Source: Trichormus sp. ATA11-4-KO1 (GTDB lineage Bacteria; Cyanobacteriota; Cyanobacteriia; Cyanobacteriales; Nostocaceae). From it: 64,000 nt of DNA. The notes beneath the pieces were generated by a model. It was given only the letters and a program-made list of their open reading frames with translations. It was not told where the DNA came from and did no database searches. Where the stretch lies: the NCBI GenBank assembly GCA_019358915.1, contig JAHHIM010000005.1:1-64000 (forward strand). Reading direction: 5' to 3'. The position numbers and the translations under genes were made by a program. Below are positions 47,133 to 58,529 of this stretch, piece after piece (position 1 is the first letter of the stretch; every line of letters begins with the position of its first letter).

Positions 47133-47939
47133 TTACCTGGGATTAGCTAATAACCAACTAACTGCAAAATCAACAGCATTTATGATAGAAAATAGCTTTG
47201 TTTGTGCAGAGCCAACTGTCGAGACTTTGACATGACCAGCTTGCTCAAAAGCTTCACCCATGTCCACAAAATTTTCACTGTCTAATTCAATGTCTGTATA
47301 TAATTTCCAGACTCGCTCTCCCGTCTCTACAATAGGTGCACCTTTGTTAACTCGCTTTGTTTGACCAACTCGATACTCACCTAGATGAAAACTGGTACAA
47401 TTGTCGTACCCAACCCCCAATAACATCACCCAACCGTTCAATTCATAGAGACGAGCTAACGGCGAACTTTCTCCCAGGGAGTTATCAAGAGTATGATCTG
47501 AGGTGATTTCTTCGGCGTGCTTTCCCCAAGCAGCAAACGAAACTGCTGGATGAGAACTCCGTACTACATTTTGCCAAGTTCGGAAAGTTTCAACAATCTT
47601 ACCCATACCTCTTGTAGGAGTTATCCTTGGGTCAAAAGCTGGCATGGTTTTACGAATAATTGACCACCAGTCACTGGGAACAGAAGGTGCTTGCCACTCA
47701 GCCGGGTCAGATAAATCACCAGAATGGGTAGGCATTACCAAAGTCCCTGCTGGCGTAATTACATCCATCAGTGCCTGAACCACTGCAACTGAACCTCCAC
47801 AAACCCATCCTAGAGAACTGAGAGAAGAGTGTACTATCACAGTCATACCTGAAGTTAAACCTGCATTGAAAAATTCTGTAGCCAGATTCTGACGAGTGCG
47901 AGGTGATGCTGTGCTCAAAATTATTTTTGATTTACTCAT
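47133..47939 (-). CDS. AAC(3)/YokD-family N-acetyltransferase
   Basis: VHSSLSSLGWVCGG, GTLVMPT, RSSHPAVSFAAWG, LLGVGYDNCTSFHLGE. Confidence 0.9.
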   Translation of the reverse strand: MSKSKIILSTASPRTRQNLATEFFNAGLTSGMTVIVHSSLSSLGWVCGGSVAVVQALMDVITPAGTLVMPTHSGDLSDPAEWQAPSVPSDWWSIIRKTMPAFDPRITPTRGMGKIVETFRTWQNVVRSSHPAVSFAAWGKHAEEITSDHTLDNSLGESSPLARLYELNGWVMLLGVGYDNCTSFHLGEYRVGQTKRVNKGAPIVETGERVWKLYTDIELDSENFVDMGEAFEQAGHVKVSTVGSAQTKLFSIINAVDFAVSWLLANPR

Positions 47940-47985
47940 GTAAATTCTAAGTAAGTTTTCTGTATACAAAAAATACTTAAAAATA

Positions 47986-52498: not shown

Positions 52499-53269
52499 AT
52501 GGCAATCACTACCCAGCAATTAATTCAATGGAAACAACAGGGACGGTCAATTGTGGCATTGACCGCCTGGGATTATGCGATCGCCCAACTGATCGATGCG
52601 GCTGGGGTAGACTTAATCCTAGTCGGAGATTCGATGGCAGCTGTTTTAGGGTATCAAACCACACTGCCAATTACCCTAGACGAAATGCTGTACCATGCTA
52701 AAGCTGTGCGTCGTGGTGTGAAACAAGCTCTAGTTGTGGTTGATTTGCCGTTTTTGACTTATCAAGAAAGCTTCCAACAAGCAATGCACTCGGCTGGGTT
52801 AGTCTTGAAGGAAACGGGCGCTCAAGCGGTTAAGTTGGAGGGTGGTTATCCAGCGATGGTAGAAACTATTACGCGTTTGGTACAAGCTGGAATTCCGGTC
52901 ATGGGTCATGTAGGTTTGACACCCCAATCAGTTCATCAATTGGGACTGCGACAACAGGGGAAAACTGAGGAGGCTGGTGAGAGGATTTTCAAAGAAGCGA
53001 TCGCCCTTGAACAAGCTGGTGTATTTTCGATAATCTTAGAGCATATTCCCGCAGATTTGGCAATGCAGATTACACAAAAATTAAGTATTCCCACAATTGG
53101 GATCGGTGCGGGAGTCCATTGTGATGGTCAGGTGTTAGTTACCTCAGATGTCCTGGGACTGACACAAAAGCAGCCACCATTTGCCAAAGTATACACAAAT
53201 CTGCGCGAGACTATTACCAAAGCTGTAGAAGATTATGCTGGGGAAGTGCGGGAACGAAAGTTTCCCTAA
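52499..53269 (+). CDS. panB: 3-methyl-2-oxobutanoate hydroxymethyltransferase
   Basis: [40 protein letters not shown]. Confidence 0.96.
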
Positions 53270-53290: not shown

Positions 53291-54046
53291 ATGGTTCTAC
53301 AAGTTCACCCTACTCAAAAAACTCAAAAAGAACTAAATATTACTTGGGAGGCACTTCCAGCCGACTACATTTTACCTGACGAGCCAGTGGAAAATATTCA
53401 ACAACCACCTTTAGCCGCAGCGCTTACCGATGCTTTGGGAGCAACAAAACGTATTCAACCTCAAATGCTAATTGGCTCTAATTTTGGACTGGTAGCCACA
53501 GTTAATAAAAAAATTGTTGTCAAAGCACCTGATTGGTTTTATGTCCCTCAAGTGCAGCCTATAGCCGCAGGTGTAATTCGCCGTAGTTATACCCCAAATT
53601 TAGAAGGCGATGCGGTTGCTGTAGTCATGGAATTTTTGTCAGATACAGATAATGGAGAACTATCAGTCCGGTCAACTCCACCCTATGGCAAACTCTATTT
53701 TTATGAACATATTCTCAAGGTTCCCACTTACGTTACATACGACCCCTACGAACCAAGTTTAGAGGTGCGGTGTTTGCAGAATGGTCAATATAGTTTGCTG
53801 TCAGCAAATACCAATGGACGTTTCTGGATTCCTGAGTTAGAGCTATTTCTAGGAATCTGGCAGGGTGAAAGACTATGCCAAACTATGAATTGGCTGCGGT
53901 GGTGGGATCAAGCAGGAAATTTACTTTTGTGGAGTCAAGAACAAGCGGAACAGGAACGCCAACGCGCGGAACAGGAACACCAACGCGCGGAAATATTAGC
54001 CGCTAAGTTACGTGAGTTAGGTGTTGACCCTGAGGCGATCGCTTAA
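53291..54046 (+). CDS. Uma2/DUF820 family putative endonuclease
   Basis: KAPDWF, VMEFLS, KLYFYE, WLRWWD, QRAEQE repeats, LRELGVDP. Confidence 0.88.
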   Translation: MVLQVHPTQKTQKELNITWEALPADYILPDEPVENIQQPPLAAALTDALGATKRIQPQMLIGSNFGLVATVNKKIVVKAPDWFYVPQVQPIAAGVIRRSYTPNLEGDAVAVVMEFLSDTDNGELSVRSTPPYGKLYFYEHILKVPTYVTYDPYEPSLEVRCLQNGQYSLLSANTNGRFWIPELELFLGIWQGERLCQTMNWLRWWDQAGNLLLWSQEQAEQERQRAEQEHQRAEILAAKLRELGVDPEAIA

Positions 54047-54084
54047 ATAACTTCCGCATAAATCTTTTGGTAAATCTTGAATAT

Positions 54085-55590
54085 ATGCACTTACTTGATC
54101 TTTTAGCCGGAGAAAACAATCATCCATCTTTGGGCACACCGGATCAACCGACTCTCACCTATCAGCAACTACGAGAAAATATAATTTCCTTGGTTTCCCA
54201 GTTAAACAGCTTTGGTTTGGGTCGAGGAGACAGAATCGCCATTGCGATGGCTAACGGTTCGCCGATGGCAATTACATTTCTTGCAGCTGCTATGTGTGGT
54301 GGTACTGCTGCACCCCTCAATCCCAAATACAAGCAAGATGAATTTGCTTTTTACTACGAAGACTTGCAAGCCAAAGCATTAATTACCTTACCGGGAACTC
54401 AAGAGGCGGCTATAGCAGCGACTACACCCGATATGCTGTTAATCAACGCCGTAACGAATTCTGACGGCACATTAAGGTTAGAATTGCACCGAGGGACTCC
54501 TCAACAGCCAAAAAATCCTCATTTTTCCTTCCCGAATGCTGATGATGTGGCAATTATTCTGCATACCAGTGGTACCACCAGCCGCCCTAAACGAGTTCCC
54601 ATTCGACACCGTAATTTGATCGCTTCTGCCCACAATATCATCGGTGTCTATAACCTCACAGCCAACGACATTAATTTATGTCTCATGCCGTTGTTTCACA
54701 TTCATGGATTAGTGGGATGTCTGCTGGCAACTTTAGCATCAGGAGGGACATTCATCTGTCCTAGTGGGTTTAATGCGTTGGAATTTTGGAAATTAGTTGA
54801 ACAGTACAAACCGACTTGGTACTCTGCTGCACCCACTATGCACCAAATGATTCTCGCTAGAGCCAGTCGTAATCAAGATATTATCAAAGCTAATACATTC
54901 CGCTTCATTCGTTCTAGTAGCGCGCCTCTACCACCAGTAATTATTGAACAAATGGAATCAGTTCTGAATGCACCAGTGGTGGAATCTTACAGTATGACTG
55001 AAGCTGCACACATGATGACTTCTAATCCCTTACCGCCCCAAGTGCGTAAACCAGGTAGTGTCGGCTATGGTTTTGGGGTAGAAGTGGGAATTATGGATGA
55101 GGATGGCAATTTGCTTCCGCAAGGTAGTCTCGGTGAAGTAGTAGTGAAGGGAGCAAATGTTGTTGATGGCTACGAAAATAACCCCCAGGCCAACACCACA
55201 GCTTTTGTTAACGGCTGGTTTCGGACTGGTGATCAAGGTAAGTTAGATGCAGATGGTTATCTTTACCTCACAGGCAGAATTAAAGAACTAATTAATCGCG
55301 GTGGTGAAAAAATATCGCCTTTGGAAGTAGATAATTTGTTGCTGCGTCATCCTGCTGTGGCTGAAGCTTTAGCGTTTGCTGTACCTCACAAATCCCTAGG
55401 GGAAGAAATTCATGCTGCTGTTGTCCTCCAGGGTAAAACTAATGAACAAGAGTTAAAATCTTACTGCTCAAATCTCTTGGCAGAGTTCAAAGTACCTAAG
55501 CAAATTCATATTTTAGAAGCATTACCCCGTGGCGCTACTGGGAAATTACAACGGCTGAATATGGCGAAGTTATTGAATTTGGGGAAATAG
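54085..55590 (+). CDS. Acyl-CoA ligase, probable oxalate-CoA ligase (AAE3/Pcs60-like)
   Basis: LHTSGTTSRPK, MPLFHIHGL, TWYSAAPTMHQ, RFIRSSSAPL, YSMTEAAHMMTSNPLP, KPGSVG, TGKLQR. Confidence 0.8.
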   Translation: MHLLDLLAGENNHPSLGTPDQPTLTYQQLRENIISLVSQLNSFGLGRGDRIAIAMANGSPMAITFLAAAMCGGTAAPLNPKYKQDEFAFYYEDLQAKALITLPGTQEAAIAATTPDMLLINAVTNSDGTLRLELHRGTPQQPKNPHFSFPNADDVAIILHTSGTTSRPKRVPIRHRNLIASAHNIIGVYNLTANDINLCLMPLFHIHGLVGCLLATLASGGTFICPSGFNALEFWKLVEQYKPTWYSAAPTMHQMILARASRNQDIIKANTFRFIRSSSAPLPPVIIEQMESVLNAPVVESYSMTEAAHMMTSNPLPPQVRKPGSVGYGFGVEVGIMDEDGNLLPQGSLGEVVVKGANVVDGYENNPQANTTAFVNGWFRTGDQGKLDADGYLYLTGRIKELINRGGEKISPLEVDNLLLRHPAVAEALAFAVPHKSLGEEIHAAVVLQGKTNEQELKSYCSNLLAEFKVPKQIHILEALPRGATGKLQRLNMAKLLNLGK

Positions 55591-55618
55591 GTACTAGGGA
55601 CTGGGAATTACGAATTAT

Positions 55619-56605
55619 ATGAAAATTTGTATTGTAGGTGCAGGTGCTATCGGCGGTTATTTGGGGGGTAAACTTTCCCTGGCTGGAGAGGACGTGACTT
55701 TAATTGCTCGTGGTCAGCATTTGCAGGCTATTCAAAGCAAGGGACTGGAGCTAATTATGGCAGATGGGTCAAGTCAAGTGGTGACTCCATCTCTGGCGAC
55801 TAGTGATATCACTGAGGCTGGTGTGCAAGATGTGGTAGTTCTGGCTGTGAAGGCTCAGAGTTTACCTGCGATCGCTCCTTTGTTATCATCGCTTTACAAC
55901 CCCCATACAATGGTTGTCACTGCCCAAAATGGTATTCCTTGGTGGTATTTCTACAAACATGGTGGTGAATATGCAGGACAGCAAATTCATGCTGTTGACC
56001 CAGATAATACAATTGCTGCTCATATTGGAGTAAATCGGGTAATTGGTTGTGTAATTTACCCAGCGACAACCTTGACAGACCCTGGAGTCATTCGACATAT
56101 TGAAGGCGATCGCTTTAGTTTGGGAGAAATCGACAACTCCAAAACTGAACGCATTCAACAACTTGCCCAAAGCTTCAAATGTGCAGGATTTAAAGCCCCC
56201 ATCAGGACTCAAATTCGTACAGAAATTTGGATCAAGCTCTGGGGAAACTTAGCATTTAATCCTATTAGCGCCTTGACTCGCGCCACTTTAGAGCAAATTT
56301 GTCAGTATCCCTTAACCCGCAACCTGGCAAAGCAGATGATGACTGAAGCCCAAATGATTGCTGAGAAACTGGGCATTGAATTTGGCATCTCTTTAGAACA
56401 GCGTATCAATGGAGCAGAAAAAGTTGGCGCTCACAAAACCTCTATGCTGCAAGATATCGAAGCAGGTCGTCCTACAGAAGTGGAAGCTATTCTAGGGGCA
56501 GTAATTGAACTAGGCAGATTAACTCAGATTCCTACGCCTTACATGGATACAGTCTATGCTAATGTCAAGTTATTAGAAAATATATTGGTGAAAATCGGCG
56601 AATAG
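55619..56605 (+). CDS. Ketopantoate reductase family protein (PanE2 / oxalyl-CoA reductase-like subfamily)
   Basis: GAGAIGG, QNGIPWWYF..GG..AVDPD insertion, IWIKLWGNLAFNPISAL, HKTSMLQD. Confidence 0.85.
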   Translation: MKICIVGAGAIGGYLGGKLSLAGEDVTLIARGQHLQAIQSKGLELIMADGSSQVVTPSLATSDITEAGVQDVVVLAVKAQSLPAIAPLLSSLYNPHTMVVTAQNGIPWWYFYKHGGEYAGQQIHAVDPDNTIAAHIGVNRVIGCVIYPATTLTDPGVIRHIEGDRFSLGEIDNSKTERIQQLAQSFKCAGFKAPIRTQIRTEIWIKLWGNLAFNPISALTRATLEQICQYPLTRNLAKQMMTEAQMIAEKLGIEFGISLEQRINGAEKVGAHKTSMLQDIEAGRPTEVEAILGAVIELGRLTQIPTPYMDTVYANVKLLENILVKIGE

Positions 56606-56948: not shown

Positions 56949-58529
56949 ATGTCTAAGGTTCTCGTCTCCGATCCTATTGACCAAGCTGGAATTGACATTC
57001 TCTCCCAAGTTGCCACTGTAGATGTCAAAACAGGTCTAAAACCAGCAGAACTGATAGAAATTATCGGTGATTATGACGCACTGATGATTCGTTCTGGTAC
57101 GCGCGTTACACAAGAAATTATTGATGCTGGCACTCAGTTAAAAATTATTGGTCGTGCCGGTGTAGGTGTGGATAATGTGGATGTTCCCGCAGCCACTCGC
57201 CGAGGAATTGTTGTTGTCAATTCACCAGAAGGTAACACCATCGCCGCCGCCGAACACGCTTTGGCAATGATGTTGTCCTTATCTCGTCACATCCCTGATG
57301 CTAACGCTTCAGTCAAACGCGGTGAGTGGGATCGCAAAAGCTTTGTGGGTGCGGAAGTCTATAAAAAAACTTTGGGAATTGTTGGCTTAGGTAAAATTGG
57401 CTCCCACGTTGCTACTGTGGCGAAAGCAATGGGGATGAAATTACTAGCTTACGATCCCTTTATTTCCACAGAACGAGCAGAACAAATTGGCTGTCAGTTA
57501 GTAGATATGGATTTACTAATGCAGCAAGCAGACTATATTACACTGCACATCCCTAAAACTCCAGAGACTACCCACTTAATCAACGCCACCTCCCTGGCAA
57601 AAATGAAACCCACAGCCAGGATTATTAACTGCGCTCGTGGTGGCATTATTGATGAAGCAGCGTTAGCAGCAGCGATTAAAGAAGGTAAAATTCTGGGTGC
57701 AGCTTTAGATGTGTTCGAGTCAGAACCACTAGGCGAATCTGATTTGCGATCACTCGGTAAAGAAGTCATCCTCACCCCGCATTTGGGAGCCTCAACAACA
57801 GAAGCTCAAGTGAATGTAGCCATTGACGTAGCTGAACAAATTCGCGATGTCATCTTAGGATTACCCGCACGTTCAGCCGTCAATATTCCTGGACTCGGCC
57901 CTGACGTGCTAGAAGAACTCAAACCCTACATGCAACTAGCCGAAACCTTGGGTAAGTTAGTAGGACAGTTAGCAGGGGGACGAGTCGAATTACTCAACGT
58001 CCGACTACAAGGTGACTTGGCAACCAACAAAAGTCAACCTTTAGTGGTAGCATCTCTCAAAGGACTACTTTACCAAGCCCTACGGGAAAGAGTAAATTAT
58101 GTCAACGCCAGCATAGAAGCGAAAGAACGGGGAATCAGGGTAATTGAAACCCGCGACGCCTCAGCCCGTGACTACGCCGGCTCACTGCACCTAGAAGCTA
58201 CAGGTACTTTAGGTACTCACTCTGTCACAGGTGCTTTGTTAGGCGATAAAGAAATTCACCTTACCGACGTTGACGGTTTCCCCATTAACGTCCCCCCCAG
58301 CAAATATATGCTGTTTACCCTGCACCGGGATATGCCAGGAATTATTGGCAAACTCGGTTCCTTGCTCGGCAGTTTTAATGTCAACATTGCCAGTATGCAG
58401 GTAGGCCGTAAAATTGTCCGTGGCGATGCAGTCATGGCTTTGAGTATCGATGACCCCTTACCCGATGGCATTTTGGCTGAAATTACCAAAGTACCGGGAA
58501 TTCGAGATGCGTACACAGTAACTCTGTAA
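56949..58529 (+). CDS. serA: D-3-phosphoglycerate dehydrogenase
   Basis: GRAGVGVDN, GLGKIG, NCARGG, TPHLGAST, C-terminal ACT domain. Confidence 0.96.
   Translation: MSKVLVSDPIDQAGIDILSQVATVDVKTGLKPAELIEIIGDYDALMIRSGTRVTQEIIDAGTQLKIIGRAGVGVDNVDVPAATRRGIVVVNSPEGNTIAAAEHALAMMLSLSRHIPDANASVKRGEWDRKSFVGAEVYKKTLGIVGLGKIGSHVATVAKAMGMKLLAYDPFISTERAEQIGCQLVDMDLLMQQADYITLHIPKTPETTHLINATSLAKMKPTARIINCARGGIIDEAALAAAIKEGKILGAALDVFESEPLGESDLRSLGKEVILTPHLGASTTEAQVNVAIDVAEQIRDVILGLPARSAVNIPGLGPDVLEELKPYMQLAETLGKLVGQLAGGRVELLNVRLQGDLATNKSQPLVVASLKGLLYQALRERVNYVNASIEAKERGIRVIETRDASARDYAGSLHLEATGTLGTHSVTGALLGDKEIHLTDVDGFPINVPPSKYMLFTLHRDMPGIIGKLGSLLGSFNVNIASMQVGRKIVRGDAVMALSIDDPLPDGILAEITKVPGIRDAYTVTL

Follow-up and report, generated by a model that had tools for sequence, protein, structure and literature searches.

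A route in which oxalate is activated to oxalyl-coenzyme A (oxalyl-CoA) and then reduced was reportedly described by Schneider et al. in 2012 in Methylorubrum (Methylobacterium) extorquens AM1, where it is said to consist of the oxalyl-CoA synthetase Oxs and the reductase PanE2. Here we describe a pair of adjacent genes, an oxalate-CoA ligase-like gene followed by a PanE-fold reductase gene, in a stretch of 64,000 nucleotides from the filamentous cyanobacterium Trichormus sp. ATA11-4-KO1 (contig JAHHIM010000005.1, positions 1 to 64,000 of the forward strand), further referred to as the window. According to excerpts of two papers, PanE2 reduces oxalyl-CoA with NADPH, and the reaction is reversible (PMC8411744, PMC9485241). 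In Cupriavidus necator H16, the PanE paralog ApbA2 is encoded near frc-oxc and shares 51% identity with PanE2; cells lacking it grow more slowly on oxalate, and it is needed for full growth, as stated in a part of a further source (PMC7486775). For cyanobacteria, the same part describes only a decarboxylating oxalate branch, which belongs to phosphoglycolate salvage in Synechocystis PCC 6803 (PMC7486775). The route itself is known from M. extorquens and C. necator, and what is unexpected here is the cyanobacterial host, not the mechanism. A literature search covering titles and abstract openings, with most subscription journals outside its coverage, returned no report pointing to the pair in a cyanobacterium.

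The pair probably leads from oxalate via oxalyl-CoA and glyoxylate to glycine, both activities being predicted from homology. The ligase would join oxalate to CoA, spending ATP, the reductase would convert oxalyl-CoA to glyoxylate and CoA using NADPH, and a glyoxylate aminotransferase of the cell would pass glyoxylate into glycine. The overall role would be oxalate removal combined with carbon recovery. Pyrophosphatase pulls AMP-forming ligases in the forward direction, which is therefore expected here on thermodynamic grounds. Conversion of oxalate to glyoxylate by these two genes had been proposed in a first-pass annotation made from the DNA letters alone; sequence comparison supports it, as both the grouping of the ligase and the co-conservation of the two genes agree with this proposal.

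Ligase family and predicted oxalate pocket

The ligase open reading frame (ORF) comprises 501 aa counted from the ATG; a TTG at position 54067 would lengthen it by six codons. All six motifs quoted in the first-pass annotation as following plant AAE3 and yeast Pcs60 were found, at residues 159, 202, 244, 273, 304 and 322. The likeness goes far beyond chance: in a search of PDB the top matches were the oxalate-CoA ligases 6qjz (428 bits), 5ie0 (410 bits) and 8aff (392 bits), whereas the next family scored 218. Every NCBIfam ligase model remained under its cut-off, including the menE model TIGR01923 (239, cut-off 330) and the FadD7 model (430, cut-off 650). Given these scores and its position apart from distant ligases in the tree, which was built by a quick search with no bootstrap, the ligase is placed neither with MenE nor with fatty-acid ligases.

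In Arabidopsis AAE3 (AtAAE3), oxalate is contacted by Ser289, His319 and Lys500, and the serine and histidine are conserved only among oxalyl-CoA synthetases, according to an excerpt of the structural source (PMC8905533). These residues align with S279, H309 and K487 of the ligase (PDB-search alignment, counted by hand). Five of the eight pocket residues are identical to those of AtAAE3, with three conservative changes; the second-shell changes are V215I, C288S and A313S. The triad is kept in 58 of the 59 close cyanobacterial rows, some of which repeat one gene, and in all seven further rows. The one row without it comes from a tandem ligase duplicate in G386 (L186:6953-10978, ordered ligase-reductase-ligase), in whose second copy the oxalate-contacting His is replaced by Leu.

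A separate group of adenylation domains, about 50% identical to the ligase, occurs in fusions with a carrier domain, some of which also include a thioesterase or a nonribosomal peptide synthetase (NRPS) module (L207:6954-9540, L209:6558-9927, L241, L208:6722-8611, L070:5111-10531, L237-L240). The oxalate-pocket Ser and His are kept in nine cyanobacterial loci of this kind; in others Pro or Tyr replaces His. A gene of the ICL/PEP-mutase family comes after the carrier-fused domain in L207, L209 and L241. Its product in L209 has petal death protein as the best PDB match and also matches oxaloacetate acetylhydrolase. The loci that keep Ser and His are candidate oxalyl-starter NRPS clusters.

Reductase family and its relatives in oxalate clusters

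The reductase belongs to the NCBIfam family NF005089 (474 bits, cut-off 223). Its structure model has a predicted local distance difference test score (pLDDT) of 97.6, with the unassigned PDB entry 3ghy as the best fold match (template modeling score 0.92-0.93), and the residues invariant in the ketopantoate reductase (KPR) fold, K206, S275 and E287, are present. The closest named relatives are Nodularia proteins (81-95% identity). The insertion QNGIPWWYF...VDP, which the first-pass annotation set apart from E. coli-type PanE, is real (residues 103-128) and absent from the aligned PanE-type paralogs; the divergent row L022 carries a similar insert, unlike the others. It is not specific for oxalyl-CoA reductases, however. 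Since it is common to the whole NF005089 subfamily, including two members without a nearby oxalate gene as well as PDB 3ghy, it is not diagnostic and was rejected as a signature of PanE2.

In the reductase tree (quick search, 50 rows, no bootstrap), 18 cyanobacterial rows form a clade with support 96. Its sister clade, with a value of 89 in the Shimodaira-Hasegawa-like approximate likelihood ratio test (SH-aLRT), contains proteins from oxlT/FAH/frc/ligase clusters, including one from Methylobacterium bullatum. The widespread cyanobacterial PanE paralog is far in the tree from the cyanobacterial pair-type reductases. Reductase homologs were found in 22 records of a plasmid collection, and the contexts of ten were examined. 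Among those at least 45% identical, six of eight lie no more than 15 kb from oxlT, oxc or frc, one adjoins the ligase, and one has neither kind of neighbor; no oxalate gene is nearby in either of the two homologs at about 40% identity. At named non-cyanobacterial genome loci, the ligase is adjacent in five of eight cases and oxlT in three of eight.

The best plasmid homolog is the M. bullatum protein, whose genes are ordered oxlT, FAH-family gene, reductase, ligase. The identity of the window proteins to this pair is 58.6% for the reductase and 48.9% for the ligase. The M. bullatum reductase starts with MSIAIVG and finishes with RLSIATA, while hand translation of the primers that cloned panE2 of M. 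extorquens, given in parts of two papers (PMC8411744, PMC9485241), yields MSIAIV and AIQGA. We take these ends to agree, which would link the window reductase to PanE2 indirectly.

Several further features of these reductases were observed. Residue 272 (window 56432-56434), the His of GAHKTS, is common to all aligned pair-linked and oxalate-cluster reductases, and the position is occupied by Phe in two non-oxalate members and in 3ghy; His272 is thus a candidate specificity residue. The protein P0127 is an FAH-family hydrolase fused with the reductase. FAH genes are also located 5' of the reductase in many proteobacterial oxalate clusters.

Co-occurrence of the two genes and competing roles

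Genomes were sampled at the level of the family (201 genomes, each at least 95% complete), the order (151) and the phylum (301). A ligase match was found in 73 family genomes, and the matches were split in two groups after an identity gap was seen. In 54 genomes there is a stand-alone ligase with at least 66% identity (in two of them matched only from about residue 140-150), and in 19 there is only a domain with 46-54% identity within longer NRPS-like frames. The reductase matched in 55 genomes, in G395 from residue 82 only. Both genes are present in the same 54 of the 201 genomes, about a quarter, which bears out their expected co-conservation. In 36 of these carriers the ligase is followed by the reductase within 2.5 kb (32 of them within 600 bp); the genes are far apart on one contig in three and on different contigs in 15. 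The 55th genome with a reductase match, G320, retains only C-terminal fragments of both genes, left by internal deletions at separate loci (C2:407531-407689 and C31:23708-24067; L210, L203), and in its sister genome G362 both genes are intact and unlinked. Genera with mixed presence lose the two genes jointly (e.g. g142, 6/7 for each gene; g147, 1/2). In the order sample the pair was found in nine genomes, adjacent in all of them, and in one further genome a fragment of the reductase lies at the start of a contig. Separately, G146 contains a stretch with 63% GC (G146:C100:23705-31005; L043 / L068) that encodes a ligase of proteobacterial type together with a reductase that breaks off after residue 62, possibly a transfer or a contaminant contig.

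The same two-step chemistry might act on a related small acid, e.g. oxamate released when purines or ureides are broken down, oxalate then being a side substrate. We consider this improbable. A purine-nucleoside-type (BMP/PnrA) binding protein is encoded beside the ligase in 15 genomes of six genera, a gene of the acetamidase/formamidase family close to the reductase in nine genomes of five genera, and a ureidoglycolate-lyase-like gene near the pair in four genomes of two genera; in family f5 a GGT-like gene is convergent with the reductase. However, the distribution of the BMP protein differs from that of the pair: it is found in 88 of the 201 genomes and, by a hand count, in 27 of the 54 carriers, and it is absent from the source genome, where the amidase adjoins ureEFG, apart from the pair. 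Hence the purine link was rejected, and the recurrent neighbors are read as inherited synteny. The second-shell changes in the ligase pocket would favor a small acid of this kind, but two of the three are shared by proteobacterial homologs beside oxlT, and the direct oxalate contacts are kept. In the source genome (G000:C42:26470-31351; L213:6471-11352), genes for a PuuE-like deacetylase, a ureidoglycolate-hydrolase-like protein and xanthine-dehydrogenase-like subunits are located behind a nitrate/cyanate-type ATP-binding cassette (ABC) system, which is possibly a cluster for purine or heterocycle catabolism.

If the reductase worked oxidatively, from glyoxylate to oxalyl-CoA, both enzymes would supply oxalyl-CoA for oxalyl transfer or oxalate output. 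This is quite improbable, as the pair is not accompanied by any transferase, thioesterase or CoA-transferase III, and joint loss in G320 would be unexpected for two redundant oxalyl-CoA suppliers. The reversibility of PanE2 noted in a part of its source (PMC9485241) agrees with such a direction, as does an acylating glyoxylate dehydrogenase that feeds oxalate output in P. fluorescens, according to an excerpt (PMC2752808). Related oxalate-pocket domains do occur in cyanobacterial NRPS clusters, but they form a separate clade, and 19 genomes have them without the reductase.

A pantothenate role, with the reductase as a true ketopantoate reductase partnered by the panB encoded upstream and the ligase as an unrelated acyl-CoA ligase, is highly improbable: the database name of the reductase (2-dehydropantoate 2-reductase), the KPR fold with its invariant residues, and the presence of panB two genes 5' (with serA on the other flank) in nine genomes of five genera agree with it, but these genomes form one clade, in the other 17 genera with the ligase no panB is seen within the flanks that were fetched, genus g153 keeps the ligase at panB but has the reductase moved away from it, an intact reductase is found in only 54 of the 201 family genomes and accompanies the ligase even where the two are unlinked (18 of 54), and the source genome has a second, separate PanE-family gene (over the NF004887 cut-off) as well as ilvC.

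Several points weigh against oxalate reduction as the role of the pair. The link to M. extorquens goes through a protein of a congener and primer-encoded ends, not through direct alignment of the M. extorquens proteins. NF005089 is a big and diverse family, with 1,131 clusters at E<=1e-30, and some of its members have no oxalate context. The pocket serine is also present in the distant ligases L048-L050, so that only the histidine discriminates in the compared set. Since the genomes are related, fewer independent events underlie the co-occurrence than the count suggests, and its P value is given no weight; one genome of the phylum sample, G272, has a reductase with 54% identity and no such ligase. 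Finally, the source genome yielded neither an importer for oxalate nor an enzyme that would form it.

Pathway setting, gene neighborhood and known systems

The source assembly is 99.9% complete. The lack of oxc, frc and oxlT, which the first-pass annotation noted for the window, extends to the whole assembly at family cut-offs: in the source genome Oxc, OxlT and Gcl have no match over the cut-off (the best OxlT-like match scores 70 bits, cut-off 335), there is no match to CoA-transferase III (the Frc family) or oxalate decarboxylase, and malate synthase was not found. The genome does have GlcD, GcvP and an enzyme scoring 623 bits with a solved alanine-glyoxylate aminotransferase. With the decarboxylating enzymes not found and the aminotransferase and GcvP present, no such exit is seen for oxalyl-CoA, and the sink of glyoxylate would be glycine. 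Oxalate decarboxylase occurs in one of the 201 family genomes and two of the 151 order genomes. It is too rare for mutual exclusion with the pair to show, and G146 has both the decarboxylase and the pair.

Two candidate sources of oxalate were rejected in the source genome. An oxaloacetate-acetylhydrolase-like enzyme has no match there, and the FMN-dependent lactate/glycolate-oxidase-like gene (G000:C36:156317-156874; L217:1489-2139) is internally deleted, with about 160 middle profile positions gone in frame. In families f5 and f17, two families other than that of Nostoc, a three-gene ABC importer of the Fe3+/phosphonate class is located directly 5' of the ligase and co-oriented with it in four genomes (L231:10118-14125, L232, L233, L234:3573-7530). 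The importer running into the ligase hints at an outside substrate in these families, and the system is a candidate oxalate or iron-oxalate importer; its binding protein has no match in the source genome. Tentatively, the pair might be a carbon-conserving repair branch of cyanobacterial photorespiration, in which oxalate that arises within the cell when glyoxylate is over-oxidized would be salvaged at the cost of ATP and NADPH and fed back into the glycine route. Such a branch, the reverse of the carbon-losing Synechocystis one, could apply to lineages without oxalate decarboxylase, Oxc/Frc or a recognized oxalate importer.

The features of the locus are listed in the table. The ORF coordinates confirm the arrangement proposed in the first-pass annotation, two plus-strand ORFs, ligase then reductase, with a gap of 28 bp. 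The panB gene, which that annotation did not mention, lies 815 bp 5' of the ligase. The Uma2 gene is absent from the corresponding place in the close relative G314.

Table. Predicted genes of the pair and its flanks in the window
Feature	Position	Strand	Remarks
panB (ketopantoate hydroxymethyltransferase)	52499..53269	+	neighbor in one clade only, probably outside the module
Uma2-family putative endonuclease	53291..54046	+	neighbor; stops 38 bp ahead of the ligase
Oxalate-CoA ligase-like (AAE3/Pcs60/Oxs-type) adenylate-forming enzyme, 501 aa	54085..55590	+	predicted; pocket residues S279, H309, K487
PanE-fold reductase, subfamily NF005089, PanE2/ApbA2-like, 328 aa	55619..56605	+	predicted; likely NADPH-dependent oxalyl-CoA reductase
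serA (phosphoglycerate dehydrogenase)	56949..58529	+	downstream neighbor, same clade as the panB link only

The ratio of nonsynonymous to synonymous substitution rates (dN/dS) is 0.06-0.11 for both genes in five of five pairwise comparisons each. The GC content of both genes, overall and at third codon positions (GC3), is the same as in their neighbors; hence recent transfer of the pair was rejected, and both genes appear to be long-resident and under purifying selection. A promoter and terminator scan gave matches at chance level only, none of them ahead of the ligase. The rbcL-rbcX-rbcS genes are located at 48-50 kb of the window, and a gene resembling AAC(3)-family acetyltransferases is situated just 3' of rbcS (window 47133-47969; score 185, family cut-off 270).

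If the proposed route operates, roughly one in four of the Nostoc-family genomes sampled here, among them relatives of Nodularia, Nostoc, Scytonema and Brasilonema, can convert oxalate to glyoxylate. Database names present the reductase as a vitamin B5 enzyme and the ligase as a generic one, and surveys based on oxc/frc markers overlook both genes. Metabolic models of bloom-forming, soil-crust and lichen cyanobacteria would then change, and the question would arise whether oxalate is a photorespiratory by-product under repair or a carbon source and toxin from fungi, plants and soil.

The locus resembles the M. extorquens AM1 route in combining a ligase with a PanE-fold reductase, and M. bullatum provides an adjacent pair in a congener. 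It differs in that the ligase precedes the reductase and that oxlT, FAH, oxc and frc are not found beside the pair, nor over the cut-off elsewhere in the genome. Moreover, the host is an oxygenic phototroph, where the likely sink is an aminotransferase together with glycine cleavage. The similarity to C. necator ApbA2 is seen in a C. metallidurans protein that adjoins oxc/frc and is 51% identical to the window reductase. The C. necator cluster, however, includes frc and oxc, and glyoxylate exits by the glycerate pathway, according to a part of its source (PMC7486775), whereas the source genome has neither CoA-transferase III nor a Gcl over the cut-off. Plant AAE3, grass-pea OCS and yeast Pcs60 (PDB 5ie0, 6qjz, 8aff) are the best structural-database relatives of the ligase and share its oxalate contacts; for the plant enzymes an excerpt describes decarboxylation of oxalyl-CoA or its use in oxalyl transfer (PMC8905533), while here the ligase would be coupled to a reductase. 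As the pair would, the Synechocystis branch ties cyanobacterial oxalate handling to glyoxylate, but in the part of the source that describes it both carbons are lost as CO2 via oxalate decarboxylase (PMC7486775), whereas the present pair would return them to glyoxylate.

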